Shown here: positions 11,127 to 33,070 of the stretch, piece after piece
How positions within the stretch are numbered: the stretch's first letter is position 1
Layout of the letters: the number at the start of each line of letters is the position of its first letter
DNA from: a virus
Taxonomy: Duplodnaviria; Heunggongvirae; Uroviricota; Caudoviricetes
DNA: 33,070 bases
Reading direction: 5' to 3' (one strand)
IMG/VR virus record: IMGVR_UViG_2698536341_000022
Location: 1-33,070 of that record
The notes under the pieces: generated by a model
Databases searched by the model: none
What the model saw: the letters and a program-made list of their open reading frames with translations, nothing else
What the model was told of the DNA's origin: nothing
Made by a program: the position numbers and the translations under genes

Positions 11127-11550
11127 CTTATCCTTCCACAAAACATTGGATTAGTCTGTAATTTATTTAATCTTAACGCCGAGCTCAATACTTTAACATC
11201 ACTTCTTCTGGCGATTGCTATGAGCCCTTCTTGATAAAAAGTTCGATCGGGAAACTGATCCTTTATGCCACAAGTTTTCTAGCTATCCTCAAAAAATTGG
11301 TGTTAAAACTGTGCCAACAAAGTTGCAAGGTTCGCTTCTCGCTCACAGCGAACTTTCATCTTTGTAAACCCGTATGATTCGCTTTTCAGCAGTCATTCAG
11401 ATACGGATTTACGCTTCCCTTGGCAGCGCATGACTATGACGCATGAGATCGCATGATCGTTTGAGGATCGTTTTTGCTGAAGTCAGCCAGAACTGGCGTG
11501 CTTTTGCTTATGTCATGCAGGTGCATGAAAACCACTACATAAAGCGGGCA

Positions 11551-16211: not shown

Positions 16212-16257
16212 GGCACAAACCTACAGCCTTGAATGACGGCTTTCCCCGCCTGCGGTT

Positions 16258-16275
16258 TGTGTGGTTGTCGGTACA
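16258..16275. promoter_or_regulatory. Ogr/Delta-type late activator box (TGT-N12-ACA) in the divergent P / O promoter region
   Basis: TGTgtggttgtcggtACA in the 142-bp gap between the P and O start codons; P2 late promoters carry this dyad. Confidence 0.6.
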
Positions 16276-16353
16276 AATACCGCGCATTGTTTCACTGCCC
16301 CCATCACCGCAACCATAAGGCTCCAGTAAGTTTTTTCTAACGGAGCACGGCTC

Positions 16354-17166
16354 ATGACAGTGAAAACAAAACGTTTTCGCATCGGGGTGGAAGGTGCCAC
16401 CACCGACGGACGCGAAATCCAGCGTGAATGGCTGGAACAGATGGCAGCCAGCTACAACCCGGCGGTGTATACCGCGCTGATTAACCTTGAGCACATCAAG
16501 TCTTATCTGCCGGACAGCACCTTTAACCGCTACGGCAAGGTGACGGCGCTGTTTGCTGAAGAAATCACGGAAGGTCCGCTGGCAGGCAAGATGGCGCTGT
16601 ATGCCGACGTTGAGCCAACGGAGTCCCTGGTGGAACTGGTGAAAAAAGGCCAGAAATTATTCACCTCTATGGAAGTCAGCCCGAAGTTTGCTGATACGGG
16701 CAAAGCCTACCTGGTCGGCCTGGCTGCCACTGATGACCCTGCCAGTCTGGGTACGGAAATGCTGACATTCAGCGCCAGTGCAGCCCATAACCCGCTGGCA
16801 AACCGCAAGCAGAATCCCGCCAATCTTTTTACCGCTGCAGAGGAAACGGTGATCGAACTGGAAGAAATCCAGGAGGACAAACCGTCCCTGTTTGCCCGTG
16901 TCACGGCGCTGTTTACCAAAAAAGAGCAGTCCGATGACGCCCGGTTCTCTGATGTGCATAAGGCCGTGGAGCTGGTCGCCACTGAGCAGCAAAACCTGAG
17001 TGTGCGTACCGAAAAATCCCTGTCTGAGCTGGAGACTGCCCTGCAGGCACAGCAGACCGCCTTTAACGAACTGGTGAATAAGCTGAGTCATGAAGACAGC
17101 CGCCAGGACTACCGCCAACGTGCAACAGGCGGTAACGCCCCCGCTGACACTCTGACCAATTGCTGA
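16354..17166 (+). CDS. O: Capsid scaffolding protein (P2 gpO family)
   Basis: FRIGVEG...INLEH...YLVGLAATDDPASLGTE matches my recollection of P2 gpO; GGAG RBS. Confidence 0.85.
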   Translation: MTVKTKRFRIGVEGATTDGREIQREWLEQMAASYNPAVYTALINLEHIKSYLPDSTFNRYGKVTALFAEEITEGPLAGKMALYADVEPTESLVELVKKGQKLFTSMEVSPKFADTGKAYLVGLAATDDPASLGTEMLTFSASAAHNPLANRKQNPANLFTAAEETVIELEEIQEDKPSLFARVTALFTKKEQSDDARFSDVHKAVELVATEQQNLSVRTEKSLSELETALQAQQTAFNELVNKLSHEDSRQDYRQRATGGNAPADTLTNC

Positions 17167-17182
17167 TGGAGCACAAAACCTG

Positions 17183-18241
17183 ATGAAGAAGAATACCCGC
17201 TTTGCTTTTAACGCTTACCTGCAGCAGCTGGCGCGTCTGAACGGTGTGGCAGTTGAAGAACTGTCCAGCAAATTCACCGTAGAGCCGTCTGTACAGCAGA
17301 CGCTGGAAGACCAGATCCAGCAGTCCGCCGCATTCCTGACGCTGATTAACGTTACGCCAGTGACTGAGCAGTCCGGTCAGCTGCTTGGATTGGGTGTTGG
17401 CAGCACCATTGCCGGAACCACTGATACCACCGCGAAAGAGCGTGAGCCTGTCGATCCGACGCTGATGGTCGATGTGGAATATAAATGCGAGCAGACTAAC
17501 TTTGACACGGTGCTGACCTACGCGAAGCTGGACCTGTGGGCGAAGTTTCAGGATTTCCAGGTGCGTATCCGTAACGCCATCGTGAAACGTCAGGCACTGG
17601 ACCGCATCATGATCGGCTTTAACGGCGTGAAGCGTGCGAAAACCTCCAACCGTAGCGAAAACCCGCTGCTGCAGGATGTGAATAAAGGCTGGCTGCAGAA
17701 AATCCGTGAGGATGCACCGGATCACGTCATGGGCAGCACCACCACGGGCGGTGAAACCACACCGGGCGCGGTGAAAGTCGGTAAAGGTGGCGAATATGCC
17801 AACCTGGACGCCGTGGTGATGGATGCCGTTAATGAGCTTATCGACGTGGTCTACCAGGACGATGACGATCTGGTGGTGATTTGCGGTCGTGAACTGCTGT
17901 CTGACAAGTATTTCCCGCTGGTCAACAAAGAGCAGGAAAACAGTGAAAAACTCGCTGCCGATATGATCATCAGTCAGAAACGCATGGGTGGCCTGCAGGC
18001 CGTGCGTGCGCCGTTCTTCCCGCCGAATGCGTTGCTAATCACCCGTCTGGATAACCTGTCCATCTACTGGCAGGAAGACACCCGCCGCCGTTCAGTTATC
18101 GACAACCCGAAACGTGACCGGATTGAAAATTTTGAATCCGTTAACGAAGCCTATGTGGTTGAGGACTACCGCTGCGCCGCACTGGTGGAAAACATCCAGA
18201 TTGGCGACTTCAGCGCCGCCGCAGCAGAAACCGGAGCGTAA
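17183..18241 (+). CDS. N: Major capsid protein (P2 gpN family)
   Basis: TRFAFNAYL...KFTVEPSV...YASLDALVMDA... matches my recollection of P2 gpN; 352 aa. Confidence 0.9.
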   Translation: MKKNTRFAFNAYLQQLARLNGVAVEELSSKFTVEPSVQQTLEDQIQQSAAFLTLINVTPVTEQSGQLLGLGVGSTIAGTTDTTAKEREPVDPTLMVDVEYKCEQTNFDTVLTYAKLDLWAKFQDFQVRIRNAIVKRQALDRIMIGFNGVKRAKTSNRSENPLLQDVNKGWLQKIREDAPDHVMGSTTTGGETTPGAVKVGKGGEYANLDAVVMDAVNELIDVVYQDDDDLVVICGRELLSDKYFPLVNKEQENSEKLAADMIISQKRMGGLQAVRAPFFPPNALLITRLDNLSIYWQEDTRRRSVIDNPKRDRIENFESVNEAYVVEDYRCAALVENIQIGDFSAAAAETGA

Positions 18242-18244
18242 TCC

Positions 18245-18895
18245 ATGAGCCTGAGTCCCGCACGGCAGCATCGCCTGCGCGTTCAGGCTGAACAGGCCGC
18301 CCGTGAGGGCGGCAGTGTTCGCCACGCGTCGGGCTATGACCTGATGCTGCTGCAACTGGCGGAAGACCGCCGCCGTCTCAAGGGCGTTCAGTCCACGGTG
18401 AAAAAAGCGGAAATAAAGGTGGAGCTGCTGCCGAAATATGCCGCCTGGGCGGAGGGCGTTCTGGCTGCCGGAGGCGCTCAACAGGATGACGTGCTGATGT
18501 ACGTGATGCTGTGGCGCATTGATGCCGGAGATTATGCCGGGGCGCTGGAGATCGGGCGTCATGCCCTGCGTCATGGCTGGGTGATGCCGCTGGGTAACCG
18601 CAACGTGCAGACCGTGCTGGCAGAGGAAATGGCAGACGCGGCGCAGAGCGCAATGCTTGCTGCCACCGGCTTTGATGCCGATCTGTTGCTGCAGACGCTG
18701 GAGCTGACAGACGGTCTGGATATGCCGGATCAGTCACGGGCGCGTCTGCATAAAGCGATTGGCGCGGTCCTGAGTGAAGGCAATCCGGCGTCTGCCCTTA
18801 ATCATCTCAACCATGCGTTACAGCTCGATCCCCGCTGTGGCGTGAAAAAAGACAAACAGCAGCTGGAGCGCAGACTGCGCAATGACAGCCGCTGA
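18245..18895 (+). CDS. M: Terminase small (endonuclease) subunit (P2 gpM family)
   Basis: Position after N; GAQQDD...MLWRIDAGD.AGALEI segment resembles P2 gpM. Confidence 0.8.
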   Translation: MSLSPARQHRLRVQAEQAAREGGSVRHASGYDLMLLQLAEDRRRLKGVQSTVKKAEIKVELLPKYAAWAEGVLAAGGAQQDDVLMYVMLWRIDAGDYAGALEIGRHALRHGWVMPLGNRNVQTVLAEEMADAAQSAMLAATGFDADLLLQTLELTDGLDMPDQSRARLHKAIGAVLSEGNPASALNHLNHALQLDPRCGVKKDKQQLERRLRNDSR

Positions 18896-18990
18896 CAGAA
18901 CGTGCCCCCGCGCACGGGCGGCACGGGGTGGCGAAAGGCACTGCCACATCAAAACCCCGTCCACCGCCCTCTATTTCAGGAGAAAGCAGC

Positions 18991-19455
18991 ATGAAGTTTG
19001 TTGCGCCAGAACAGGCACCGGAACAGGCGGAAATCATCAGAAATACGCCGTTCTGGCCTGATGTGGACCTGTCGGAGTTTCGCAGTGTCATGCGCACTGA
19101 CGGCACGGTGACGCAGCCGCGTTTAAAGCAGGTTGCGCTGTCGGCAATTTCGGAGGTCAACGCAGAGCTGTATGAGTTTCGCAGACGCCAGCAGATGCTG
19201 GGGTATGCCTCGCTGGCAGAAGTCCCGGCGGAACAACTGGACGGCAAAAGCGAGCGCATTCAGCACTATTTCAACGCGGTTTACTGCTGGGCACGCGCCA
19301 TGCTCAACGAACGTTACCAGGACTATGACGCCACGGCATCCGGTGCGAAGCGAGGCGAGGAACTGGCGGAAGCAAGCGGTGATTTATGGCGTGACGCCCG
19401 CTGGGCCATCAGCCGGGTGCAGGATGCGCCGCACTGCACAGTGGAGCTTATCTGA
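18991..19455 (+). CDS. L: Head completion/stabilisation protein (P2 gpL family)
   Basis: Track ORF 18928..19455; start taken at ATG 18991 with AGGAG RBS; position after M. Confidence 0.75.
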   Translation: MKFVAPEQAPEQAEIIRNTPFWPDVDLSEFRSVMRTDGTVTQPRLKQVALSAISEVNAELYEFRRRQQMLGYASLAEVPAEQLDGKSERIQHYFNAVYCWARAMLNERYQDYDATASGAKRGEELAEASGDLWRDARWAISRVQDAPHCTVELI

Positions 19456-19658
19456 TGAAAGTGCGTGCGCATCAGTATGACACGGTGGACGCACTTTGCT
19501 GGCGTCATTACGGGCGCACGCAGGGTGTCACGGAGCAGGTACTGAAGGCAAATCCGGGGCTTGCCGAATACGGCCCCTTTTTACCTCACGGGCTGCAGGT
19601 GGAGCTGCCGGACATTCCGACCACCACCACCGTGCAGACCGTCCAGCTATGGGACTGA
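19455..19658 (+). CDS. X: Tail protein X (P2 gpX family, 67 aa)
   Basis: Small ORF overlapping the L stop (TGATG), immediately before the lysis cassette as in P2. Confidence 0.7.
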   Translation: MKVRAHQYDTVDALCWRHYGRTQGVTEQVLKANPGLAEYGPFLPHGLQVELPDIPTTTTVQTVQLWD

Positions 19659-19661
19659 ATT

Positions 19662-19877
19662 ATGACGCTTGAGCGAATCAGCGCCTTTATCACGTATTGC
19701 ATCGCCGTCGTGCTGGCCTGGCTGGGCGATTTGTCCATCAAGGATGCCTCAACGCTGGGCGGCCTGATGATTGGTGTGCTGATGCTGGCTATCAACTGGT
19801 ACTACAAACATAAAGCCTACCAGCTTCTGCGCGACGGGCAGATCTCGCGGGAGGACTATGAATCCATCAATCGTTAA
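19662..19877 (+). CDS. Holin, two predicted transmembrane segments (possible pinholin, 71 aa)
   Basis: Two hydrophobic stretches (ISAFITYCIAVVLAWLGDL, LGGLMIGVLMLAINWYY) and a charged C-terminus; immediately upstream of the endolysin. Confidence 0.7.
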   Translation: MTLERISAFITYCIAVVLAWLGDLSIKDASTLGGLMIGVLMLAINWYYKHKAYQLLRDGQISREDYESINR

Positions 19878-20370
19878 ACGCTGCCTTGTCGGGGCCGTGC
19901 TGGCTATTGCAGCTACGTTGCCGGGTTTTCAGCAGCTTCACACCTCCGTGGAGGGGCTGAAACTAATTGCCGATTACGAAGGCTGCCGTCTGCAGCCGTA
20001 TCAGTGCAGTGCAGGTGTCTGGACCGACGGCATTGGTAATACATCGGGCGTCATTCCCGGCAAAACAATCACGGAACGACAGGCAGCAGAAGGGCTGATT
20101 TCCAACGTGCTGCGTGTGGAGCGGGCACTGGAAAGGTGTGTGAAGCAACAGCCGCCGCAAAAGGTGTATGACGCGGTGGTGTCGTTTGCCTTCAACGTGG
20201 GAACGGGCAATGCCTGCAGTTCCACACTGGTGAAATTACTCAATCAGCGGCTCTGGGCGGATGCGTGCCGACAGTTGCCGCGCTGGGTTTATGTAAAAGG
20301 TGTGTTTAATCAGGGGCTGGATAACCGCCGTGCGCGGGAGATGGCCTGGTGTTTACAGGGAGCAAACTGA
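19858..20370 (+). CDS. Endolysin (lysozyme), probable signal-anchor-release type
   Basis: Position after the holin; N-terminal Gly/Ala-rich hydrophobic segment (VGAVLAIAATLPGF) as in SAR endolysins, followed by a lysozyme-like domain (GVWTDGIGNT). Confidence 0.75.
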   Translation: MNPSIVKRCLVGAVLAIAATLPGFQQLHTSVEGLKLIADYEGCRLQPYQCSAGVWTDGIGNTSGVIPGKTITERQAAEGLISNVLRVERALERCVKQQPPQKVYDAVVSFAFNVGTGNACSSTLVKLLNQRLWADACRQLPRWVYVKGVFNQGLDNRRAREMAWCLQGAN

Positions 20371-20371
20371 A

Positions 20372-20749
20372 ATGAAAAAGAAATTAATCAGCGGACTGTT
20401 TCTGATGTTATGGATGGCGCTGTTAATCGCAGCAATGGTGTATCCGCAGGGGATTTTTCCGGTACTGGCAGCGTCCGGCGTTTGGGTAGCCTGTTTGCTG
20501 ACATGGGCGGTAATTCCGGTAGCACTGGCTGCGTTAATTAAGAATGGCCCGCTCTGGCAGGAGTTAAGGGCATCTTTACTGAAGACAATTACCCGAAAAG
20601 AAAACGTATTTATCAGTTGGGTGATGCGATTGCTGATTGTTGTAAGTCTCGCCTGGACGGGGTGGGCTATTACCCTGGTCTTTTATCTACTGACCGTTAT
20701 TGCCTTCTGGATCACCCGTAATCAGATGGCGAAACAGGTAGCAGCATGA
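20372..20749 (+). CDS. lysA: Lysis-timing membrane protein (P2 LysA-like, four hydrophobic segments)
   Basis: Track ORF 20300..20749, start taken at ATG 20372; strongly hydrophobic; position between endolysin and spanin genes. Confidence 0.6.
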   Translation: MKKKLISGLFLMLWMALLIAAMVYPQGIFPVLAASGVWVACLLTWAVIPVALAALIKNGPLWQELRASLLKTITRKENVFISWVMRLLIVVSLAWTGWAITLVFYLLTVIAFWITRNQMAKQVAA

Positions 20750-21174
20750 ACCGGTTGCTGCTGGTTGTGCTGGCGTTATTACTGGCGGCGCTGGGCTGGC
20801 AGACGTGGCGGCTGGCTGATGCCAGCCAGACCATCAGCACGCAGGCAGACGAGCTGCAGAGCAAAAGCCAGGCACTGGCAAAGAGCAACAGCCAGCTTAT
20901 CAGCCTGTCCATTCTGACTGAAACCAATAACCGGGAGCAGGCGCGGCTCTATGCCGAAGCAGAACAGACCAGCACGCTGCTGAGACAACGACAACACCGG
21001 ATCGAGGAACTGAAACGTGAGAACGAGGATTTACGCCGCTGGGCTGATACTCCTTTGCCTGCTGACATTATCCGGCTGCGGAAACGTCCGGCACTCACCG
21101 GAGGTATGGCTTACCGTCAGTGGTTGTCCGCGAGTGACGCCGTGTCGGCTGGATCAGGCAACGCCGCGCACTAA
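20746..21174 (+). CDS. lysB: Spanin inner-membrane subunit (Rz-like, P2 LysB-like)
   Basis: N-terminal TM segment (LLLVVLALLLAALGW) followed by a charged, coiled-coil-like region; overlaps the next gene in another frame, as Rz/Rz1 pairs do. Confidence 0.7.
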   Translation: MNRLLLVVLALLLAALGWQTWRLADASQTISTQADELQSKSQALAKSNSQLISLSILTETNNREQARLYAEAEQTSTLLRQRQHRIEELKRENEDLRRWADTPLPADIIRLRKRPALTGGMAYRQWLSASDAVSAGSGNAAH

Positions 21175-21307
21175 CGGTGATCTGAACGCGTTGCTGGATG
21201 AAACGGAGGCCGCCTGGGCGGTCTGTGCAGACAAAGTGGACATGATTATTGCGTGTCAGGAGCGAAACAGTGAACAAACCACAATCCCTGCGCCACGCCC
21301 TCAATAA
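21017..21307 (+). CDS. lysC: Spanin outer-membrane lipoprotein subunit (Rz1-like, P2 LysC-like)
   Basis: Lipobox LTLSGC after a hydrophobic leader; begins inside lysB in a different frame; start codon uncertain (GTG 21017). Confidence 0.6.
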   Translation: MRTRIYAAGLILLCLLTLSGCGNVRHSPEVWLTVSGCPRVTPCRLDQATPRTNGDLNALLDETEAAWAVCADKVDMIIACQERNSEQTTIPAPRPQ

Positions 21308-21701
21308 AGCGGTGCCTTATGTCCGCAATAACCCGGACAAACTGCATCTGTTTGTGGATAACGGTTCGCTGGTTGCCACGGGGGCCAGCTCCATGTCGTG
21401 GGAGTACCGTTACACACTGAACGCGGTGATTGAGGATTTCAGCGGCGACCAGAATCTGCTGATGGCCCCGGTTTTGCTGTGGCTGAGGGATAACCAGCCC
21501 GATGCCATCAATAACCCGGCGTTACGGGAAAAGCTATTCACCTTTGAGGTGGATATTCTGCGCAACGATGTCTGTGATATCAGCCTGAACCTGCAACTGA
21601 CGGAACGTGTGCTGGTCAGCACTGACGGCAGTGTGTCGAGCGTTGAAGCTATAGCGGAACCTGATGCACCTGAAGAAATGTGGACGGTGAAACGTGGCTG
21701 A
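21270..21701 (+). CDS. R: Tail completion protein (P2 gpR family)
   Basis: Track ORF 21249..21701; start taken at GTG 21270 with AGGAG RBS; LFVDNGS...YTLNAVIEDF...LLWLRDNQPD resembles P2 gpR. Confidence 0.75.
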   Translation: MNKPQSLRHALNKAVPYVRNNPDKLHLFVDNGSLVATGASSMSWEYRYTLNAVIEDFSGDQNLLMAPVLLWLRDNQPDAINNPALREKLFTFEVDILRNDVCDISLNLQLTERVLVSTDGSVSSVEAIAEPDAPEEMWTVKRG

Positions 21702-22140
21702 ACTGCAGAAGGTGGACGACTGGCTGAGTGCCTTGCTGGCGAATCTGGAACCAGCCTCGAGAAGCCGCATGATGCGCCAGCTGGCGCAGGAACTTCGCCG
21801 GACACAGCAGCAGAATATCAGGATGCAGCGCAACCCTGACGGCAGCAGCTATGAACCGCGACGGGTAACAGCACGCAGTAAAAAAGGCCGTATCAAACGT
21901 CAGATGTTTGCAAAGCTGCGCACCACAAAATACCTGAAAACTGCCGCCAGCACCGACTCTGCCAGCGTGCAGTTTGAAGGCAAGGTGCAGCGCATTGCCC
22001 GCGTTCACCATTACGGCCTGCGAGATCGCGTCAGTCGTAAGGGACCGGAGGTGCGTTACGCAGAGCGTCGCCTTCTGGGTGTAAATGATGATGTTGAGGC
22101 AATGACCCGCGACATGATTCTGCAATGGCTGGCGGGGTGA
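21694..22140 (+). CDS. S: Tail completion protein (P2 gpS family)
   Basis: Position after R with overlapping stop/start (GTG 21694); size 148 aa. Confidence 0.7.
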   Translation: MAELQKVDDWLSALLANLEPASRSRMMRQLAQELRRTQQQNIRMQRNPDGSSYEPRRVTARSKKGRIKRQMFAKLRTTKYLKTAASTDSASVQFEGKVQRIARVHHYGLRDRVSRKGPEVRYAERRLLGVNDDVEAMTRDMILQWLAG

Positions 22141-22144
22141 TCTT

Positions 22145-22162
22145 TGTATCAGCACTGATACA
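22145..22162. promoter_or_regulatory. Ogr/Delta-type late activator box (TGT-N12-ACA) upstream of V
   Basis: TTGTATCAGcaCTGATACAA is a perfect 9-bp dyad containing TGT-N12-ACA, centred about 55 bp upstream of ATG 22209. Confidence 0.7.
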
Positions 22163-22208
22163 AGTTGCAGCACTGCCGCCTTTCTTCCCCTGATGGCAAC
22201 CTTTCCCT

Positions 22209-22787
22209 ATGAACGCACAATTAACCGAAATCATGCGCCTTATCACCAACCTGATCCGCACAGGGGTAGTCACCGAAGTGGACAGGGAAAACTGGCTTTG
22301 CCGGGTGAAAACGGGCGAGCTTGAAACCAACTGGATCAGCTGGCTGACGCTGCGTGCCGGGAATGCCCGTACATGGTGGCGACCATCGGAAGGTGAGCAG
22401 GTGGTGCTGCTGAGTCTGGGCGGCAATCTGGAAACCGCCTTTGCGCTGCCCGCTGTCTATTCGAATCAGTTCGCACCACCGTCGACGTCGGCGGACGCCT
22501 GCGTGACAGAACATCCTGACGGTGGCTGGTTTGAATACGAACCCGCCACCGGGCGCTGGTATGTCAGGGGCATCAAATCAATGGTCATTGAGGCTGCTGA
22601 CAACATCACCATGAAAACCAGTGAGTTTGTACTGGAGGCTGACCGCACGCGCATTAACAGCGAAGTGGTGATCAATGGTGGCGTTACCCAGGGCGGCGGA
22701 GCGATGAGTTCTAACGGGATCGTGGTTGATGCGCATCAGCATACTGGCGTCCTGAAAGGCGGCGATACAACCGGAGGCCCGGTATGA
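22209..22787 (+). CDS. V: Baseplate spike/assembly protein (P2 gpV family)
   Basis: Position and size (192 aa); first gene after the late promoter box. Confidence 0.8.
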   Translation: MNAQLTEIMRLITNLIRTGVVTEVDRENWLCRVKTGELETNWISWLTLRAGNARTWWRPSEGEQVVLLSLGGNLETAFALPAVYSNQFAPPSTSADACVTEHPDGGWFEYEPATGRWYVRGIKSMVIEAADNITMKTSEFVLEADRTRINSEVVINGGVTQGGGAMSSNGIVVDAHQHTGVLKGGDTTGGPV

Positions 22788-23143
22788 CGCTTTATAGCGG
22801 GATGAACAATACCAGCGGCAAAGTCATTACTGATATTGATCATCTGCGCCAGTCGGTGCGGGACATTCTGCTGACACCGCAGGGTAGCCGTATTGCCCGC
22901 CGGGAATATGGTTCCCTGCTGTCGGCACTGATAGATCAGCCACAAAATCCGGCATTACGCCTGCAGGTCATGTCGGCAGTGTATGTGGCGCTGAGTCGCT
23001 GGGAGCCACGGTTGACGCTGGATTCCATCACCATCAACAGCAATTTTGACGGTTCAATGGTGGTGGAGCTGACCGGGCGGCGGAATAACGGTGTGCCTGT
23101 GTCCCTTTCCGTATCAACAGGAGCAGAGAATGGCAGTGATTGA
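22784..23143 (+). CDS. W: Baseplate wedge protein (P2 gpW family)
   Basis: 119 aa; overlaps the V stop (ATGA); P2 synteny. Confidence 0.8.
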   Translation: MTLYSGMNNTSGKVITDIDHLRQSVRDILLTPQGSRIARREYGSLLSALIDQPQNPALRLQVMSAVYVALSRWEPRLTLDSITINSNFDGSMVVELTGRRNNGVPVSLSVSTGAENGSD

Positions 23144-24038
23144 CCTTTCGCAGTTGCCTGCACCGCAGATTGTGGATGTGCCGGACTTTGAGACGCTGCT
23201 TGCCGAACGCAAGGCAGAATTTGTGGCGCTTCATCCGAAAGATGAGCAGGAAGCAGTGATCCGCACGCTGGAACTGGAATCTGAACCCGCCACTAAATTG
23301 TTGCAGGAGAATGCTTACCGTGAGTTGCTTCTGCGCCAGCGCATTAACGAAGCCGCGCAGGCGGTGATGGTGGCTTACGCGATGGGCGGCGATCTTGACC
23401 AGCTCGCTGCCAACTACAACGTGACACGCCTGACGGTGACGCCTGCTGATAATGATGCTGTGCCGCCCGTTGCAGCTGTGATGGAAAGCGATGAAGCGTT
23501 ACGCCTGCGTGTGCCTGCAGCCTTTGAAGGGCTTTCTGTTGCGGGGCCAACTGCAGCTTATGAATTTCATGCCCGAAGCGCCGACGGTCGGGTGGCGGAT
23601 GCCAGTGCAACCAGCCCGGCACCTGCAGAGGTGGTGCTGACTGTCCTTAGCCGCGAAGGCGATGGAACTGCAGAAAAAGACCTGCTGGACGTGGTGGAAA
23701 AAGCTCTGAACAGTGAGAACGTCCGCCCGGTGGCTGACCGTCTTACGGTTTGCAGCGCAGAAATCATCCCGTATCGCGTGGAAGCCACCATTTTTCTCTA
23801 TCCTGGACCGGAAGCAGAGCCGGTAATGGCAGCGGCAAAAGCCAGCCTGCAGAAGTACATCGCCAGTCAGACGCGTCTTGGTCGGGATATTCGCCGTAGC
23901 GCCATCTTTGCCGCCCTGCATGTTGAGGGGGTGCAGCGTGTGGAGCTGGCTTCTCCTCTGGCGGATGTGGTCCTGAACAAAACACAGGCGGCATCATGTA
24001 CGCAGTGGAGCGTAACCAACGGAGGAACGGATGAATAG
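23130..24038 (+). CDS. J: Baseplate protein J (P2 gpJ family, 302 aa)
   Basis: Track ORF 23091..24038; start taken at ATG 23130 with AGGAG RBS; size equals P2 gpJ. Confidence 0.8.
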   Translation: MAVIDLSQLPAPQIVDVPDFETLLAERKAEFVALHPKDEQEAVIRTLELESEPATKLLQENAYRELLLRQRINEAAQAVMVAYAMGGDLDQLAANYNVTRLTVTPADNDAVPPVAAVMESDEALRLRVPAAFEGLSVAGPTAAYEFHARSADGRVADASATSPAPAEVVLTVLSREGDGTAEKDLLDVVEKALNSENVRPVADRLTVCSAEIIPYRVEATIFLYPGPEAEPVMAAAKASLQKYIASQTRLGRDIRRSAIFAALHVEGVQRVELASPLADVVLNKTQAASCTQWSVTNGGTDE

Positions 24039-24636
24039 TTTGCTGCCACCGGGTTCAACACCACTGGAGCGCCGACTGGCGCAAACCTGCAGCGGGATTT
24101 CTGATCTGCAGGTGCCGCTTCGTGACTTGTGGAATCCGGCAACCTGTCCGGTCAGTTTCCTGCCTTATCTCGCCTGGGCGTTCTCTGTGGATCGCTGGGA
24201 CGAGGGCTGGACAGAAAGCGTCAAGCGCCAGGTGGTGAAGGATGCTTTTTATATTCATCAGCATAAAGGGACCACCAGTGCCGTGCGGCGGGTGGTGGAG
24301 CCGTTCGGATTCCTGATCCGCATTATTGAGTGGTGGCAGACCGGAGAAACACCGGGCACGTTTCGCCTGGATATCGGCGTGCAGGACCAGGGCATCACTG
24401 AAGATACCTATCTGGAACTTGAGCGACTGATAAGCGATGCCAAACCATGTAGCCGCCACATGATCGGCATGTCCATCAATCTGCAGACCAGCGGCCCGCA
24501 TTGGGTGGGAGCCGCCAGCTATCTTGGCGAAGAAATCACGATCTATCCGTATATCAACGAAACGATTATTTCCGGTGGCACCGCGCATGAAGGCGGGGCG
24601 GTCCATGTTATTGACACAATGAGAGTGAATCCATGA
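24031..24636 (+). CDS. I: Baseplate protein I (P2 gpI family)
   Basis: Overlaps the J stop; position before tail-fibre gene H. Confidence 0.8.
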   Translation: MNSLLPPGSTPLERRLAQTCSGISDLQVPLRDLWNPATCPVSFLPYLAWAFSVDRWDEGWTESVKRQVVKDAFYIHQHKGTTSAVRRVVEPFGFLIRIIEWWQTGETPGTFRLDIGVQDQGITEDTYLELERLISDAKPCSRHMIGMSINLQTSGPHWVGAASYLGEEITIYPYINETIISGGTAHEGGAVHVIDTMRVNP

Positions 24637-26138
24637 GCACAAAATTTTATACCCTGCTGACGGATATTGGCGCGGCGAAACTTGCCAGCGCCGCCGCGCT
24701 CGGTGTGCCGCTAAAAATTACCCATATGGCGGTGGGCGATGGCGGTGGAGTATTGCCAACGCCGGACGCAAAGCAGACGGCACTGGTAAATGAGAAACGC
24801 CGGGCTGCGCTGAATATGCTTTATATCGACCCGCAGAACAGCAGCCAGATTATTGCCGAACAGGTGATCCCTGAAAACGAGGGCGGTTGGTGGATACGTG
24901 AAGTGGGCTTGTTTGATGAGTCCGGGGCATTGATTGCCGTGGGCAACTGCCCGGAAAGCTATAAGCCGCAACTGGCTGAAGGTAGCGGGCGCACTCAGAC
25001 CGTGCGCATGGTGCTGATTACCAGCAGCACGGACAATATCACCCTGAAAATCGACCCTGCTGTAGTGCTGGCAACCCGCAAGTATGTGGATGACAAGGCA
25101 CTGGAGCTGAAGGTGTACGCGGATGATCAGATGGCAAAACATCTTGCCGCACCGGACCCGCATTCACAGTACGCGCCAAAAGCCAGCCCGACATTTACCG
25201 GAACCCCCAAAGCGCCAACGCCAGCGGCGGGGAATAATACCACGCAGGTTGCGACCACTGCGTTTGTACAGGCGGCACTGACGGCCCTTATTAATGGTGC
25301 GCCAGCCACGCTGGACACGCTGAAAGAAATAGCCGCAGCCATTAACAATGATCCGAATTTCAGTACCACCATTAACAATGCGCTGGCACTAAAAGCACCG
25401 TTGTCGAGTCCGGCACTCACCGGAACGCCAACAGCCCCCACGGCGGCGCAGTCGGTCAACAATACACAGATTGCCACTACGGCTTTTGTGAAATCGGCGA
25501 TTGCAGGAATGGTGGGTTCTGCACCTGCTGCACTGGATACACTGAACGAACTGGCGGCGGCACTGGGGAATGATCCGAACTTTGCCACGACAATGCTTAA
25601 TGCGCTGGCAGGTAAACAACCGCTGGACAATACGCTTACCAATTTGAGTGGAAAGGATGTAGCTGGTCTTCTCACATACCTTGGTTTGGGAGAAGGTGCT
25701 CCAGCTATTGGCGTTCCGTTCTTCTGGCCGTCCGCTGCAATGCCAAATACTGTAATCGACAGCTGGTCCAGTATGGTGTTTTTGAAGTTCAACGGCGCGA
25801 AATTCTCTGCCACTGATTATCCTGTGCTGGCGAAAGTATTTCCTTCGCTGGTATTACCTGAAGCCCGCGGTGATTTCATTCGTATCTGGGATGACGGGCG
25901 AGGTGCAGACGGTGGTCGCGAATTATTAAGCTGGCAGGAAGCTACAAACTTTTCTCAGTTTGCCGGGAATATAGGCGGAGGTGCGGGACACGCAATTAAC
26001 TTTCATGATGGCATCGCCGGAAATCAGCCAGGATTTTCACGATTTAATTTCACCAGTAACTCTGTGGGTGATGGTGTGAATTTTGTTGCTGTCAGACCGC
26101 GAAATATTGCATTTAACTTTCTGGTGAGGGCTAAATAA
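24633..26138 (+). CDS. H: Tail fibre protein (P2 gpH family) with a Mu/P1 S-type variable C-terminal domain (501 aa)
   Basis: N-terminal MSTKFYTLLTDIGAAKLA... is typical of P2-like H; repeated TTAFV motifs; C-terminal IRIWDDGRGADGGRE-type motif as in invertible-segment tail fibres. Confidence 0.85.
   Translation: MSTKFYTLLTDIGAAKLASAAALGVPLKITHMAVGDGGGVLPTPDAKQTALVNEKRRAALNMLYIDPQNSSQIIAEQVIPENEGGWWIREVGLFDESGALIAVGNCPESYKPQLAEGSGRTQTVRMVLITSSTDNITLKIDPAVVLATRKYVDDKALELKVYADDQMAKHLAAPDPHSQYAPKASPTFTGTPKAPTPAAGNNTTQVATTAFVQAALTALINGAPATLDTLKEIAAAINNDPNFSTTINNALALKAPLSSPALTGTPTAPTAAQSVNNTQIATTAFVKSAIAGMVGSAPAALDTLNELAAALGNDPNFATTMLNALAGKQPLDNTLTNLSGKDVAGLLTYLGLGEGAPAIGVPFFWPSAAMPNTVIDSWSSMVFLKFNGAKFSATDYPVLAKVFPSLVLPEARGDFIRIWDDGRGADGGRELLSWQEATNFSQFAGNIGGGAGHAINFHDGIAGNQPGFSRFNFTSNSVGDGVNFVAVRPRNIAFNFLVRAK
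25669..25694. other. Gin/Hin-type crossover-like site inside H at the constant/variable junction
   Basis: TTCTCACATACC-TT-GGTTTGGGAGAA: two 12-bp half-sites in inverted orientation (10 of 12 positions complementary) around a 2-bp core; identity with the second copy at 32742 begins exactly at the core. Confidence 0.55.
25681..26009 (+). repeat. 329-bp segment of H (3' coding region) duplicated 100% in direct orientation at 32742-33070
   Basis: Compared base by base in the sequence; the second copy runs to the window edge, so the repeat may be longer. Confidence 0.95.
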
Positions 26139-26224
26139 TGAAACCTGTTTTTGATGAAAATGGGCTGGCATGATGCTGAATGCCGGAGTTTTGTTGCTTT
26201 TGTTAAGCAGTTCAGAGCTGAAAT

Positions 26225-26710
26225 TCACGACAGCAGCCCTCCCACCGTTTTACTGATATCGCTTAAGGCAGACGTTGCCGTTTCCTGCAGATTATTCAGT
26301 TGCGCACTGAGATCACCGAACATATCGGACAGGGATTCATCCACCCGTTTGAGCGACAGGGTGAACTCAATCCGGCGCGGCATACCGTCGCGGAAAAACT
26401 CCGTTTTAGTCTGATTCAGTCCCTCAATCACATACATGCCATAAATCGTGCCGCTGCCTTCAATCAGGGGCCATGCTTTCCCCTGTTCTGCCATCTGCTC
26501 CAGTGCCAGCAACGACAGCCTGCCACCTGTTATCTCCGGCATAAGAACACCGGAAAGCGTCAGCATGTCGTTGTCCGGTCCCAGAAACTGCGTGGACGGA
26601 CGTCGGTTTACCCGGCTGTTTGCCGCATGTCGCCAGCTGCGTTGATACTGCAGCTCCTGATACGGCACGGTGCGCAGCATAAACACGTACAATCCCAGCA
26701 CCATCATCAT
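26225..26710 (-). CDS. U: Tail protein U (P2 gpU family, 161 aa)
   Basis: Position immediately downstream of T on the minus strand with overlapping stop/start; size; P2 synteny. Confidence 0.8.
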   Translation of the reverse strand: MMMVLGLYVFMLRTVPYQELQYQRSWRHAANSRVNRRPSTQFLGPDNDMLTLSGVLMPEITGGRLSLLALEQMAEQGKAWPLIEGSGTIYGMYVIEGLNQTKTEFFRDGMPRRIEFTLSLKRVDESLSDMFGDLSAQLNNLQETATSALSDISKTVGGLLS

Positions 26711-29700
26711 GCGTCGTATCCCCCCTGATCGCTGTAGTTACTCCTGGCTTTTGCCTTCAGCCTACGTTCACGTTCATCAAGCTGGCGGGCCACCTCCCGC
26801 GCAATATCCTGCGCACTTTGTCCTGGCTGCGTCTGAATGATGATCTGCATCGGTGCCTCAATCCGTTGAACGGGCGGCACAGTGGCTGCACGACTCACCA
26901 TCGCTTCGCCGCCTTTCGCGGGAAGTGCCAAAGGGTGCAACGGTGGAAGCTCTGCAGGCGCGGCAGCAACGCCCATCATTCCGGCAACAACGGCAGCCAG
27001 TGCAGCTGTATTTCTCCGGCTGGTCACATTTGCCGGGCCGTTAACAATTTCCGGCCCGTTTTCACCGACGATGCCAAACTGCCCGCGCGGGATATAGCCG
27101 CCGCTGTCATACATCCCCGCAAAGCCATATCCCCATGACGGAAAACCACCCGATGGCATCATCACTTTACCGTCTGCATTCACCGTCGCAGGTTGCTGAC
27201 GCGTCACGCTTTCCGGCAGTTTCGCCTTTGCAGCCTCTTTACTGACAATGCCGAGTTTATCCAGCAACCAGGAAACGCCAGATTTCAGGGAGTCCAGCGG
27301 ATGCATAACCATATTCAGCCCTTCCGCCAGTGCCTCCCCGAATCGTCGCCCCATTGCCGCTGCGCTCTGCAGTTCGGCAGAAGTCGACTTAACGGGCGTC
27401 AGCAGATCAGTAAACCAGCCCCACAGCGCCTGCACTTTGTCACCAATCCACTGGAACACAGGCTTAAGCGGTTCGAACGCTGCACTGATGGGACCTGCCG
27501 CCGCTTTGAATCCTTCCACCACGCCACCGAGAAATGCGGTGATGGGTTGCCAGTATTTCCAGACAACCAGTGCCACACCCGCCAGTGCAGTAACCACAAG
27601 ACCTATCGGACTGAGCAGAGCACCTAACAGACCAGATACGGCATACAGGGCAACGCGCAACATCGCCAGTGGACCAGATGCCAGTACTCGCAGCACCGTG
27701 CCTGCGGCAGCCAGCCCGCCGCGTAGTGCTGCCAGTGGATTCATAAACATCACAGCAACCGCACGTAAACCGGATAATCCAGACCGCAAAAGTGCAACCG
27801 GCGCACCTGCTACAGTTTTCAGGACATTTCCCGTCAGTGATGCCGTGCGGCGCAAAGACGACAACGGCGCAGTAAGTAAACCTGCGGCGTTGCCCGATGA
27901 AGCAAGCCCGCGTCGCAGCAGTGCCAGTGGTGCGCCAGCCAGCCAGGACAACGCGCTGCTGGTTCGAGTTACTGCTGCCGTAACGGAAGATAACGTTTTG
28001 ATACCCAACACAGAGAATCCCAGACGGATCACTGCCAGCGGCCCCAGCACTGCAGCCAGCGCCACCGCTAAGGTGCCGAGGCCGACGGTAACCGCAGCCA
28101 CAACAGCCGATGCTTTCATCAGTGTGCCTGTCAGTTCCGGGTTAGCTTCCACCCAGCGACGCAACGCCCCCGTGACGCTTTTCACCGTGTACAGAATATC
28201 CATCAGCGGCTGGCGCAGCGTTTCGCCCAGGCTGCTGAAGGTGTTCTGCGCTCCGGTTTTGACCAGCAACCACTGCGCAGAAAGTGAATCCTTGTTAATG
28301 TCGGATTCTTTCTGCATGGAGCCGAGCGCATCATTGCCCGCTGTCAGTTTTAACTGACGCTGCAGTTCCGGCAGGTTGTTTGCCAGTTTCGCCGCGTCAT
28401 CGCCAAACTCTTTACCAAACAACATAGTCATGGCAGACAGGCGCTTGTCCTGCGGCAGCGCGTTTACCTTCTCCAGCACGCGCTGGATGGTTCCCATCGC
28501 ATCCTTCGTCATCTGCTTTTCAATCACTTCAGGATTGAGTTTCAGCAGATTCATCCCTTCAAAGAAACTCTTGCTTTGCATGGTGGCAATGGACAATTCA
28601 CGCACCATCGCGTTTGCTGCACTGGCTGCAACCTCTGGCGCAGCGCCCAGTGTCAGGAAGGTGGAACCCAGCGCCGCCGCTTTACGATAATCCAGACGGT
28701 CAGCCACACCGCCCAGACGTTGCATCACATCAATGATGTCTGCCCCTTTCGACATGGCGTTATCATCCAGATAGTTCAGCGCATCACCGAGCTGTTCAAT
28801 ATTGCGGGTGGGGATTTTGTAGAGCTGGGCGATTTTCCCCAGACTTTCTGACAGTTCATCCGCTGGCAGCTCAAAGGCTGTTGCCGCCTTTGCTGCCGTA
28901 CTGGCGAAGGCCAGCAGGTCACGTTTCTGATCTTCCCAGCTGTCGTCAGGGTTTGCGACGTTCATGCGCGCACCACCTTCAACCAGTGCAGCGAAGTCCA
29001 CCGCACCGTTTTCCATCGGCAACTGTTCGCTGGCAGCCTTGATGGCATCCTGCATTTCATAAAAACGTGCAGTGCGGTTGCCATTATCGTCACGCAGACC
29101 ATTGACCTGCTTTGCCACACCTTTCATGGCATCTTCCATGCTGGTATAGCTTTTTACTGCCGCCATCACTGGCGCACCCATTGCCAGCCCTGCAGCCGTG
29201 GTGGTGGCTCCGGCACCTGCAATACGATCACGCACCTCCAGCGAACGGGCATAACTGGCACGCGCTGCATTCATCCTGCGCTGAGCTTCCCCCAGTCGCT
29301 TCAGCCGCGCCTCCTGTTTCGAAAGTTCCTGGTTATAACGTGATGTTTCACGGGCTAAACGGGCAGTTGCTCCCGCATCGTCTTTCGCAGAAATTCCCGC
29401 CCGGTACAGTTCAGCACGCACAAGCGCCGTCTGCTGCTGCAGCTTTTTCTGGCGTTCTTCCAGGCGCTGAACAGCCAGCCGTTGACGGCCCAGAGCAACA
29501 ACCTGACGTTGCGAAGGCGGCCCCATCGCTCCCAGTTCCTGACTGAGCAAATTTGCACGCTGGCGGGCATAGTTCAGCCTGTCGCCTAATTTCTGATTTT
29601 CTGCCTGCAGCTTTCGGAAGCTGTCCAGACTGCTCCCGGCCTGATCAAGCTGCTTTATTGCATCGCGGGATTTTTTGACAGCAGCAGCCAGTTCTCTTGA

Positions 29701-29784
29701 ACTGGCCTGCGCAGATCGAAATGGACGGGTGAGCTTGTCAACCGCATTAAGAATGACCTGCAGACGCAGGTTGTTATCACTCAT
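26707..29784 (-). CDS. T: Tail tape measure protein (P2 gpT family, 1025 aa)
   Basis: Very long, Ala-rich protein with coiled-coil N-terminal region and hydrophobic central segments; follows E/E'. Confidence 0.85.
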   Translation of the reverse strand: MSDNNLRLQVILNAVDKLTRPFRSAQASSRELAAAVKKSRDAIKQLDQAGSSLDSFRKLQAENQKLGDRLNYARQRANLLSQELGAMGPPSQRQVVALGRQRLAVQRLEERQKKLQQQTALVRAELYRAGISAKDDAGATARLARETSRYNQELSKQEARLKRLGEAQRRMNAARASYARSLEVRDRIAGAGATTTAAGLAMGAPVMAAVKSYTSMEDAMKGVAKQVNGLRDDNGNRTARFYEMQDAIKAASEQLPMENGAVDFAALVEGGARMNVANPDDSWEDQKRDLLAFASTAAKAATAFELPADELSESLGKIAQLYKIPTRNIEQLGDALNYLDDNAMSKGADIIDVMQRLGGVADRLDYRKAAALGSTFLTLGAAPEVAASAANAMVRELSIATMQSKSFFEGMNLLKLNPEVIEKQMTKDAMGTIQRVLEKVNALPQDKRLSAMTMLFGKEFGDDAAKLANNLPELQRQLKLTAGNDALGSMQKESDINKDSLSAQWLLVKTGAQNTFSSLGETLRQPLMDILYTVKSVTGALRRWVEANPELTGTLMKASAVVAAVTVGLGTLAVALAAVLGPLAVIRLGFSVLGIKTLSSVTAAVTRTSSALSWLAGAPLALLRRGLASSGNAAGLLTAPLSSLRRTASLTGNVLKTVAGAPVALLRSGLSGLRAVAVMFMNPLAALRGGLAAAGTVLRVLASGPLAMLRVALYAVSGLLGALLSPIGLVVTALAGVALVVWKYWQPITAFLGGVVEGFKAAAGPISAAFEPLKPVFQWIGDKVQALWGWFTDLLTPVKSTSAELQSAAAMGRRFGEALAEGLNMVMHPLDSLKSGVSWLLDKLGIVSKEAAKAKLPESVTRQQPATVNADGKVMMPSGGFPSWGYGFAGMYDSGGYIPRGQFGIVGENGPEIVNGPANVTSRRNTAALAAVVAGMMGVAAAPAELPPLHPLALPAKGGEAMVSRAATVPPVQRIEAPMQIIIQTQPGQSAQDIAREVARQLDERERRLKAKARSNYSDQGGYDA

Positions 29785-30213
29785 CGTTGGCCCCGCTTCT
29801 CTGAATCGCTTTATACCGCCATTCCAGCACTTCGGTCAGCGGCATAACGTCAGTAACGGATGGCGGCCAGTGAAAAATGGTGGCGATATCTGCCACCAGA
29901 TCGTCAACCGTCAGGCTGTCGGTAAACCGGCAAGCACCGACTTCTTCAACAAAAAAGTGACAACCTCAACCGACATGGCAGTGAGATCTGCCGGGTCCAT
30001 CTCTGCAATTTCCTGTGCAGTCAGTGCCGGACTGGAGATGCGGGGGATCACGGTCATCATCGCGTTTACATCCATATCCATAATGGCCTGCAGGCGTGTA
30101 CCGCGCAGCGCACCGGACTGCGGTTTACGCAGCACAATTTCGGTGATTTCTGTTTTACCGCGCTTGATGGGGGTATCCAGTTGAATGGTCTTTTCAGTCT
30201 GCTTATCGCTCAT
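29777..30213 (-). CDS. E': Tail assembly chaperone E+E' made by programmed -1 ribosomal frameshift (about 141 aa)
   Basis: Slippery heptamer T_TTT_TTG on the minus strand (window 29950-29956); the -1 frame stays open for 53 codons to a TGA at 29777-29779, overlapping the T start. Same architecture as P2 E/E'. Confidence 0.7.
29911..30213 (-). CDS. E: Tail assembly chaperone E (P2 gpE family, 100 aa)
   Basis: Small ORF between tail tube and tape measure; ends ...VVTFLLKKSVLAGLPTA with the slippery heptamer inside. Confidence 0.8.
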   Translation of the reverse strand: MSDKQTEKTIQLDTPIKRGKTEITEIVLRKPQSGALRGTRLQAIMDMDVNAMMTVIPRISSPALTAQEIAEMDPADLTAMSVEVVTFLLKKSVLAGLPTA

Positions 30214-30267
30214 TTTGCTGTCCTGTCAATTGGGTTCTGGCGCGGTATCCCGCGCCGTTCAGATATA

Positions 30268-30783
30268 TCAGAGGCCGAGGGCGTTGCGGTGCGCTTCCAT
30301 CAGGTCCACACCGTCCACAATTTCCACCATGTTGATAAGGTCCACTTCATAGAGCACCTCACCATTGATGGTCAGCTTCGCGTAGCTGTTGGTACTGGTC
30401 ACTTTGGTGGTGTTGCTTTCGCCCGTCTTCCACTCGCCGGAATCCACTTCTTTGTGACGTCCACGCACGACAAGCTCCACGGCCTGCACTTCCCCGGTAT
30501 CGTCACGCTGAATAGAGCCGGTAAAGCGCAGCTGGATGCCATCCACCGTGGCTTTACCCATCTGTTTAAACAGCAGCAATTCAGTACCACCAATGGAAAA
30601 TTCTGTGTCCAGCGCACTGTCATCAAGCCCCAGATCCACATCCACCGCACCCGGCATTCCGCCGCCGCGATACTTCTCATATTTGCGGGTAAATTTCGGC
30701 AGCGTCAGCGACTCAACGATCCCCTGCCAGTTGTTCCCGTCGTTAAACAGGTTCAGGTGTTTTAATTTGCGTGGTAATGCCAT
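30268..30783 (-). CDS. FII: Tail tube protein (P2 gpFII family, 171 aa)
   Basis: Size and position downstream of FI; P2 synteny. Confidence 0.85.
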   Translation of the reverse strand: MALPRKLKHLNLFNDGNNWQGIVESLTLPKFTRKYEKYRGGGMPGAVDVDLGLDDSALDTEFSIGGTELLLFKQMGKATVDGIQLRFTGSIQRDDTGEVQAVELVVRGRHKEVDSGEWKTGESNTTKVTSTNSYAKLTINGEVLYEVDLINMVEIVDGVDLMEAHRNALGL

Positions 30784-30792
30784 GTTGTCCCC

Positions 30793-31965
30793 TTACGCGC
30801 TGACCTGGCTGGCGAAATTCACCAGGTACTGATCGGTGATGCGCTGACGCAGCATCAGGTTTTCAAGTGGCGGCACTGGCGTGTAGTCGTAGTCGATGGT
30901 GAGTTTTCCGGCTTTCAGCGTGTCTTTGTCGTTCACCGACTCATCCAGCCAGCAATCACCACCAATGAGATAGCCCTGACTGACCAGGCTGCGCATTTTG
31001 GCGCGGATACCTTCGATAATGTCGCGGGCCAGCGACGGGTTAAGCGGTTTATCCACCGCCCACATGTGTGCTTCTGCCATCGTGTCCATCAGCACCTGCG
31101 CCGTGCGGGTGTAGTTTTCGAAGGCAAAGAGCGGGTCATCACTCAGGCAGCGGGAACCCCAGAAGCGGAAACCGTCTTTACGCACAAGCGTGGTGACGTC
31201 GTTCTGGTTCAGCAGACCTGCATCGGTTGCCGGGTCCTGCAGATCCCAGAACACATCTGCAGAAATTCCGGTGACACCGTTCACGCCCACGTTGGACAGG
31301 CTTTTGTGCCATCCGGTCTGCTCGTCAATTTTGGCGCGCAGACCAAGCGCACGGGCGGTGGCATATGCCGTTGCTTCGGCATTCAGCACCGTGTCCCAAC
31401 CAGTAAAGTCAGGCCAGATCAGCATCCCTTCGCGCTGGCTGAAGTTTTCGCGGTAAGTGATCGCCTCCTGCACTGTCTTGCAGCCATACGCTGACAGGTA
31501 AGCAAATCCACGCAGGCGTTGCGCCACGCTCAGCAACTCAGTAGCTACCGCCTTGGTGTCGTGGCCTGGCACGCCGAGAATGCGCGGTTTAACGCCGAGC
31601 TGTGACTGGGCAGATAACAGGGCTTTCATACCTGTTTTTTTACCTTCAGCAGTCACTGCGCCGATGATATTGGTCGTGGTTTCGTCTTCCGTTTCACCCT
31701 GCGGCACACGCACAACAATGGTCACGGGTTTTGCCTGGTCAGCGATGGCATCCAGCGAACGGGCCAGAGTACCTGACTCACCCGCTTTACCGCTGGCAGT
31801 CAGCACATCAGTGATCAGCACGGGTTTATTAAGAGGAAACATTTTTGCATCGGCATCATCGCCCGTGCAGACCATACCCACGATGGCGGTGCTCACCGTG
31901 GTAATAGATCGGGTGCCTTCGTTGACTTCAACAACGCGCACCCCGTGGTGGTAATCCTGAGCCAT
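30793..31965 (-). CDS. FI: Contractile tail sheath protein (P2 gpFI family, 390 aa)
   Basis: Size, AGGAGG RBS, first gene of the FI-FII-E-T-U operon. Confidence 0.9.
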
Positions 31966-32041
31966 AGTGGCGAACCTCCTGATTGGATTAGGCTTCGCCC
32001 TATGTTGAAGTGATTGTGCCTGACAAACAGCTAAGCGCAGT

Positions 32042-32059
32042 TGTGTCGTTATTCACACA
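32042..32059. promoter_or_regulatory. Ogr/Delta-type late activator box (TGT-N12-ACA) upstream of FI
   Basis: TGTGTcgttattcACACA dyad about 85 bp upstream of the FI start codon on the minus strand. Confidence 0.6.
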
Positions 32060-32107
32060 AAATAACGGTATTTGTCTGCTTGCAGGGATAATCAACATAA
32101 TGCTGAT

Positions 32108-32674
32108 TCAGGGGGATTCATTGATCTTATTTGCCGGAAATTTTCTATAAATGGTAGAAACGCCTACATCAAAAATCAGTGCAATACGCTGTATTGATTC
32201 TCCGGCCTCGAGTAAACGCCCAATCTGTGCCCACTGTTCGGTGGTCAACTTAGGACGGCGTCCACCTACTCTGCCTTTGGCACGAGCTGCAGCCAGCCCT
32301 GCCCTGGTACGTTCAACTATCAGTTCGCGTTCCATTTCAGCCAGGGCACCCATGACATGAAAAAAGAAACGGCCCATTGGGGTACTGGTATCAATACTGT
32401 CAGTCAGGCTTCTGAAATTCACACCACGCTGGCGCAACTCTTCTATCAGCGTAACAAGATGCCGCATACTGCGCCCCAACCTGTCCAGCTTCCAGACAAC
32501 CAGCGTGTCTCCTGCCGATAGTGTCCTGAGTAGTTTTTTCAGCCCCGGTCTGTCGGACTTAGTGCCACTGATTTTGTCCTCAAAAATCCGCTCACATCCC
32601 GCGCAGTTCAGTGCATTACGTTGCAAATCGGTGTTCTGGTCATTTGTTGACACGCGTACATAGCCAATAAGCAT
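32108..32674 (-). CDS. Serine recombinase, DNA invertase of the Gin/Cin/Pin/Hin family (188 aa)
   Basis: MLIGYVRVSTNDQNTDLQRNAL...LVVWKLDRLGRSM...GRFFFHVMGALAEMERELI... is near-colinear with my recollection of Mu Gin; start taken at ATG 32674 (track ORF starts two codons earlier). Confidence 0.9.
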   Translation of the reverse strand: MLIGYVRVSTNDQNTDLQRNALNCAGCERIFEDKISGTKSDRPGLKKLLRTLSAGDTLVVWKLDRLGRSMRHLVTLIEELRQRGVNFRSLTDSIDTSTPMGRFFFHVMGALAEMERELIVERTRAGLAAARAKGRVGGRRPKLTTEQWAQIGRLLEAGESIQRIALIFDVGVSTIYRKFPANKINESP

Positions 32675-32729
32675 GATCATCCCCCTGAATAAAAACCGGA
32701 GATGATGCCAGTTAGCTGGTACCTCTGCA

Positions 32730-32755
32730 TTTTCTTAAACGTTGGTTTGGGAGAA
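32730..32755. other. Gin/Hin-type crossover-like site upstream of the invertase gene
   Basis: TTTTCTTAAACG-TT-GGTTTGGGAGAA; right half-site and core identical to the site in H; AAAC..GTTT dyad reminiscent of hix/gix sites. Confidence 0.55.
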
Positions 32756-33070
32756 GGTGCTCCAGCTATTGGCGTTCCGTTCTTCTGGCCGTCCGCTGCA
32801 ATGCCAAATACTGTAATCGACAGCTGGTCCAGTATGGTGTTTTTGAAGTTCAACGGCGCGAAATTCTCTGCCACTGATTATCCTGTGCTGGCGAAAGTAT
32901 TTCCTTCGCTGGTATTACCTGAAGCCCGCGGTGATTTCATTCGTATCTGGGATGACGGGCGAGGTGCAGACGGTGGTCGCGAATTATTAAGCTGGCAGGA
33001 AGCTACAAACTTTTCTCAGTTTGCCGGGAATATAGGCGGAGGTGCGGGACACGCAATTAACTTTCATGAT
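32742..33070 (+). pseudogene. Second copy of the tail-fibre variable C-terminal coding segment, lacking the H constant region; runs off the window
   Basis: 100% identical to 25681-26009; reading frame preserved (VGLGEGAPAIGVPFFWPS...); an in-frame ATG at 32705 exists but there is no H N-terminal region. Confidence 0.6.

Follow-up and report, generated by a model that had tools for sequence, protein, structure and literature searches.

A single-N scaffold join most probably explains the apparent inversion of the tail module in a P2-like prophage of Escherichia coli

The closest described systems for the prophage studied here are the gene order of phage P2, the invertible tail-fibre segments of the Din family, and the false joins that are made when draft genomes are scaffolded. 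In P2 the late genes run V W J I H G ... FI FII E T U D ogr, and the slot between H and FI is occupied by G and Z/fun. Invertases of the Din family (Gin, Hin, Cin) show a strong bias against recombination between direct repeats. In P2-like prophages, tail-fibre segments of this kind have been observed in coexisting orientations within clonal E. coli cultures (PMC4272514), and a phase-variable tail-fibre cassette in a P2-like prophage is real and already known biology. Scaffolders and gap fillers work greedily and can produce false joins, and the joins made in scaffolding are written as N (PMC5320598). In the GapFiller paper we found no statement on the notation used for gaps that could not be closed.

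In this study we analyzed a stretch of 33,070 nt, referred to as the window, which is a P2-like prophage in the E. coli draft assembly GCA_001286445.1, at approximately 30512-63581 of contig CYFK01000034.1 (63,583 bp). The contig was found by an exact-protein look-up of the tail-fibre protein H, which located the exact protein on 10 public contigs; the gene order of CYFK01000034.1 is the same as that of the window, and the contig ends 2 nt past the window's last base. The same look-up recorded CYFK01000034.1 in 2 samples and listed one further 'similar place', and our literature search returned no paper on the origin or the assembly pipeline of CYFK01. The window begins exactly on the stop codon of the integrase (positions 1-3) and ends at a codon boundary (33070), with attL, attR, ogr and most of D lying outside; it looks like a provirus call on a draft contig that has been trimmed to gene boundaries. 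After the integrase come replication and cargo genes and then the late genes Q to H in P2 order. The genes that matter for the following are:

1-1209, minus strand: integrase (Pfam Int_N and Phage_integrase)
8227-11141, minus strand: SIR2-HerA two-gene anti-phage defence system (HerA, 626 aa, PADLOC E = 6.7e-267; SIR2, 352 aa, E = 6.3e-211)
11722-13373, plus strand: gene pair of the PADLOC candidate system PDC-M03, directly upstream of Q
13408-14448, minus strand: Q, start of the late genes, in P2 order
24633-26138, plus strand: tail-fibre gene H, 501 aa, constant part plus variable end Hv, flip state A (Pfam Phage_tail_fib, E = 2.7e-65)
26225-26710, minus strand: tail gene U (Pfam Phage_P2_GpU, E = 1.9e-44)
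26707-29784, minus strand: tape-measure gene T, 1025 aa (Pfam PhageMin_Tail)
29777-29896, minus strand: tail assembly chaperone E', an ORF (GpE/E', Phage_P2_GpE, called in the relative L004 and not in the source contig, L006)
29911-30213, minus strand: tail assembly chaperone E, an ORF (Pfam Phage_TAC_7 in L006)
30268-30783, minus strand: tail tube gene FII (Pfam Phage_tube)
30793-31965, minus strand: tail sheath gene FI (Pfam Phage_sheath_1)
32108-32680, minus strand: serine DNA invertase of the Gin/Cin/Pin/Hin type (Pfam Resolvase, E = 2.9e-53; HTH_7, E = 6.4e-16)

The invertase shares about 90% DNA identity with regions annotated as pinE in O157 genomes. As for the cargo, the SIR2-HerA pair occupies the variable slot between the replication genes and Q, and in the PDC-M03 pair the A component (304 aa) has a weak similarity to HipA_C kinases while the B component (246 aa) carries a HIRAN domain. 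Some ssrA-adjacent relatives carry an RVT_1 reverse transcriptase (257 aa) together with a small ORF after ogr, at the end of the prophage (6472-7387 in L002 and 15228-16143 in L012), which looks like retron-type cargo.

The region immediately behind H had been singled out in a sequence-only reading, in which a short ORF was noted in the place of the tail-fibre assembly gene and the tail module beyond it was found to be inverted. Is this break a property of the prophage or of its assembly? The features at the join itself are the ends of what we call piece A (up to 26169) and piece B (26171-33070):

26138-26169, plus strand: first 32 nt of the tail-fibre assembly gene tfa, collinear with relatives; end of contig piece A
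26170, no strand: scaffold gap, 'N' in CYFK01000034.1 and 'A' in the window
26171-26228, minus strand: first 58 nt of gene D, 100% identical to 13557-13614 of the relative L014; end of piece B

When window positions 14633-33070 were aligned with the deposited CYFK01000034.1 (18,438 nt aligned), the sole mismatch was the base at 26170, which is 'A' in the window and 'N' in the deposit (L006 position 11539). Hence the breakpoint is a scaffold gap, and the sequence across it was never determined. The 'A' fits neither of its flanks: the tfa of relatives has 'C' or 'T' at this place (...GGGCTGGC-C/T-ACAGTGCC), and D, read on the window's plus strand, has 'C' (...CTCAATAC-TGATGCTG). There is no microhomology at the join, where the parental tfa and D sequences are without any shared base. 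We also compared positions 25400-26900 by megablast with the complete genomes of E. coli (5,426) and with 50,697 phage records. The matches fell into two sets, one of H and tfa (up to 98.7% identity) that stopped at 26169, and one of D, U and T (up to 99.9% identity) that began at 26171 on the opposite strand; records spanning the junction numbered 0 of 5,426 genomes and 0 of 50,697 phage records. An exact 31-mer over the junction likewise had 0 occurrences in the IMG/VR viral contigs and the GTDB representative genomes, a count that is uninformative by itself since the deposit has an N at that base, and the 63-aa ORF that would fuse the start of D to the sequence beyond the gap (26037-26228, minus strand) was absent from the record in an exact look-up. 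We estimate a probability of about 90% that the junction after H is an assembly artefact, namely a single-N scaffold join between two pieces of one prophage with piece B placed back to front. As such we do not regard the breakpoint as a real feature of the prophage.

This reading accounts for each of the peculiarities that had been noted, as the single-N join produces both the 11-codon ORF with its TGA stop and the apparent inversion of the tail module and loss of D. The short ORF (MKPVFDENGLA, with TGA at 26171) is indeed present behind H, its ATG at 26138 overlapping the H stop as TAATG, and the H and tfa genes of relatives overlap by 1 nt in the same way. It consists of 32 bases of tfa, the N and a TGA contributed by the next piece, so that without the abutting contig ends there would be neither its last codon (GC-N) nor its stop. 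The expectation of a tail-fibre assembly gene in this slot was borne out: nt 1-32 of tfa are there, and relatives (L004, L005, L007 and L008) read on from this point into a tfa of 197 aa. It was also correct that U follows soon after on the opposite strand, with the qualification that the first 58 nt of D lie between the stub and U. The start codon of D, a GTG at 26228, overlaps the U stop, and D has 366 aa at full size in L014. Thus D, which had been taken to be absent, is truncated instead, and the break that had been placed between U and D lies inside D, at approximately codon 19.

A different hypothesis would be that the inversion is real, a 7-kb event with breakpoints at codon 11 of tfa and codon 19 of D that runs across an unsequenced stretch and leaves a defective prophage. 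The scaffolding software presumably had read pairs linking both ends, which would speak for such an event; the join itself consists of an N in the deposit with no sequence across it, neither breakpoint shows microhomology or resembles a crossover site, and the inversion junction is absent from the E. coli genomes, the phage records, IMG/VR and the GTDB representative genomes named above. We consider a real inversion very improbable, and the duplicated Hv end described below adds to the case against it. An inversion mediated by the invertase at a secondary (quasi) site was considered as well and rejected, neither breakpoint being site-like: near 26170, in D or in U we found no site match with up to 3 mismatches and no half-site match with up to 2. 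The start of tfa contains TGTTTTTGATGA (window 26146-26157), 12 nt upstream of the gap, which agrees with the Salmonella hix right half-site (GGTTTTTGATAA) in 10 of 12 bases. It agrees with the phage's own half-site in only 7 of 12 bases and has no partner half, and this hix-like sequence is probably due to chance.

The same prophage can be followed through the break in other assemblies. In relatives the canonical layout opens with H and tfa, has tfa' and Hv' next on the other strand, and goes on with the invertase, FI, FII, E, E', T, U, D and ogr; the reverse complement of window positions 26171-33070 has exactly this order from the invertase to nt 58 of D. The relative L014 (a contig of 2.17 Mb in GCA_054888575.1) matches window 26171-33070 at 100.000% identity over 6,900 nt and is 100% identical over Hv and nt 1-32 of tfa, with 1 mismatch in the 5,315 nt upstream; its tfa of 197 aa, its D of 366 aa and its ogr are intact and stand in canonical order. 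Two further relatives, L016 and L017, are 99.9% identical to the window's prophage and canonical in order, so that both flanks of the break are 99.9-100% identical to three prophages (L014, L016, L017), each of them collinear with the uninterrupted canonical order. In L008, with 1 mismatch in 11.5 kb, H continues directly into tfa, tfa' and Hv', and among the matches listed for the exact T protein all 10 long contigs have the canonical layout. Judged from these relatives, the prophage of the sequenced isolate was most likely canonical in reality. The proposal of a defective prophage is not supported, as tfa, D and ogr are intact where the 99.9-100% identical prophage occurs in larger assemblies. 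That FI, FII, E, T, U and the invertase are inverted relative to P2 holds for the window, where all of them lie on the minus strand, and does not hold as biology, since it is piece B that has been reversed.

One property of the window that the sequence-only reading had missed is a direct repeat of 329 nt (25681-26009 and 32742-33070). It belongs to an invertible tail-fibre segment, the parts of which are:

25669-25694, plus strand: 26-bp Din-type crossover site inside H, TTCTCACATACC-TT-GGTTTGGGAGAA
25681-26009, plus strand: repeat copy 1, start of Hv from the central TT, 329-nt perfect repeat
32730-32755, plus strand: crossover site in state B beside the invertase, TTTTCTTAAACG-TT-GGTTTGGGAGAA, the same as the Hv-invertase junction of L014
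32742-33070, plus strand: repeat copy 2, start of Hv, 329-nt perfect repeat that runs to the window end

Apart from these two sites the window contains no further crossover site. The repeat is 100% identical from the central TT onwards, while the outer half-sites differ (TTCTCACATACC versus TTTTCTTAAACG). In the state-B relative L014 the outer half of the H site is joined to the other inner half, that of Hv', and a comparison of L004 (state A) with L014 (state B) shows a reciprocal exchange at the central dinucleotide. The inner half-site of Hv' differs from that of Hv by one base and the two sequences diverge 6 nt past the site, which identifies repeat copy 2 as Hv, in state B, and not Hv'. 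State A is found in L004, L016 and L017, and state B in L014, L003 and 224 complete E. coli genomes, where the invertase is joined to Hv. The window holds both junctions at once, i.e. constant H to Hv (state A) and invertase to Hv (state B). Since an Hv end can adjoin only one of these partners in any single molecule, the culture would have held both orientations unless Hv were duplicated. The two Hv copies represent both flip states of an invertible tail-fibre segment of the Gin/Cin/Pin type, which implies that the invertase would have been switching in the sequenced culture. Here the third explanation that had been offered, a chimeric assembly of the two orientations, came closest: the arrangement is an assembly product and both orientations are present, but the join was not made at a crossover site.

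These observations bear on the other explanations too. Had the canonical prophage undergone one inversion, the invertase would have Hv' as its neighbour, and the window has Hv there; with Hv present both beside constant H and beside the invertase, a real inversion would demand that one end of Hv adjoin two partners in one molecule. A long inverted repeat common to Hv and Hv', as in P1, that might rescue a single inversion was considered and rejected, Hv' diverging 6 nt past the site. In canonical relatives the two 26-bp crossover sites are inverted and flank the segment, one of them within H; in the window their direct orientation is due only to the reversal of piece B. If an inversion had really brought the sites into direct orientation, the invertase might then excise or tandemly duplicate a unit of 7,061 bp (Hv, tfa stub, D', U ... 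invertase), and the window could hold a duplication or a circular by-product. Both sites do lie on the plus strand, the path from Hv across the gap and from U through the invertase back to Hv is a formal loop with a period of 7,061 nt, and such a duplication would yield both the junction of constant H with Hv and that of the invertase with Hv. However, it requires the junction of tfa with D, which is unsupported as it is an N, and it requires the direct-repeat recombination that Din-family invertases disfavour; the loop arises equally from an assembly graph of mixed orientations, and the same prophage is canonical in other assemblies. We regard a duplication as extremely improbable. Piece B might also have come from another, related P2-like prophage of this genome that was in state B, and the scaffolder would then have misplaced it. 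Many E. coli genomes do have 2-9 places that match this region, and the junction would still be an artefact, merely with another source for piece B. Against a second prophage, a single prophage in L014 is 100% identical to piece B as well as to the tail of piece A, and the Hv copies do not differ from each other, so that one prophage suffices; we hold this origin of piece B to be very unlikely.

How could the scaffold join have come about? In our proposal piece A, up to 26169, would hold the int-to-tfa part of a normal P2-like prophage, ending with nt 32 of tfa, and piece B, from 26171 to 33070, would be the reversed continuation of the same prophage with the Hv end, the invertase, FI, FII, E, T, U and nt 1-58 of D. 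The scaffolding software would have joined the two with one N, which would have become 'A' on its way into the window. As a root cause we infer an invertible tail-fibre segment that was present in both orientations in the sequenced culture: Hv would have been assembled beside constant H in piece A and beside the invertase in piece B, creating a repeat or branch in the assembly graph. In sister assemblies, L007, L008 and four similar contigs end no more than tens of bases away from the crossover site on the invertase side, and such breaks are expected if the reads held both orientations. The read-pair geometry that follows from a mixture of flip states predicts no link between nt 32 of tfa and nt 58 of D in the observed orientation, so that other read pairs must have backed the join. 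It is conceivable that the scaffolder's link reflects real molecules, from a sub-population of lysogens in which an illegitimate inversion or inverted duplication joined tfa and D by their 5' ends, but we give this very little credence. If it were true, the crossover sites would be placed in direct orientation, trapping or excising a tail-gene module of 7 kb.

For the prophage itself, the breakpoint matters only as a caution on draft scaffolds and converted Ns. An N that is rewritten as a base can simulate an ORF, a stop codon and a rearrangement that do not exist, and invertible tail-fibre segments of phages are predictable trouble spots in short-read assembly and scaffolding. Surveys of prophages that score completeness or synteny on draft contigs would miscall the window's prophage as defective.

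In comparison with known systems, the junction resembles a misjoin of the SSPACE/GapFiller type: the window's lone N stands exactly where parentage and strand switch, the flanks match the canonical arrangement perfectly and the contig ends in a repeat. It differs from such cases in that we found no consistent read-pair geometry for the CYFK01 join. With regard to P2 synteny, all genes from Q to U are present and follow P2 order within each piece, whereas the family to which the window's prophage belongs has an invertible cassette (tfa, tfa', Hv') and the invertase between H and FI. The cassette in turn shares the hallmarks of Mu G/Gin, P1 C/Cin, e14 P/Pin and the inversions of P2-like prophages (PMC4272514): a serine invertase (Resolvase plus HTH_7) adjoins the segment, there are two imperfectly palindromic crossover sites of 26 bp with one of them in the tail-fibre gene, the alternative fibre C-termini Hv and Hv' each have their own tail-fibre assembly gene, and the exchange between L004 and L014 is reciprocal at the central dinucleotide. 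Measured against these Din-family segments, the prophage in the window shows nothing unusual.
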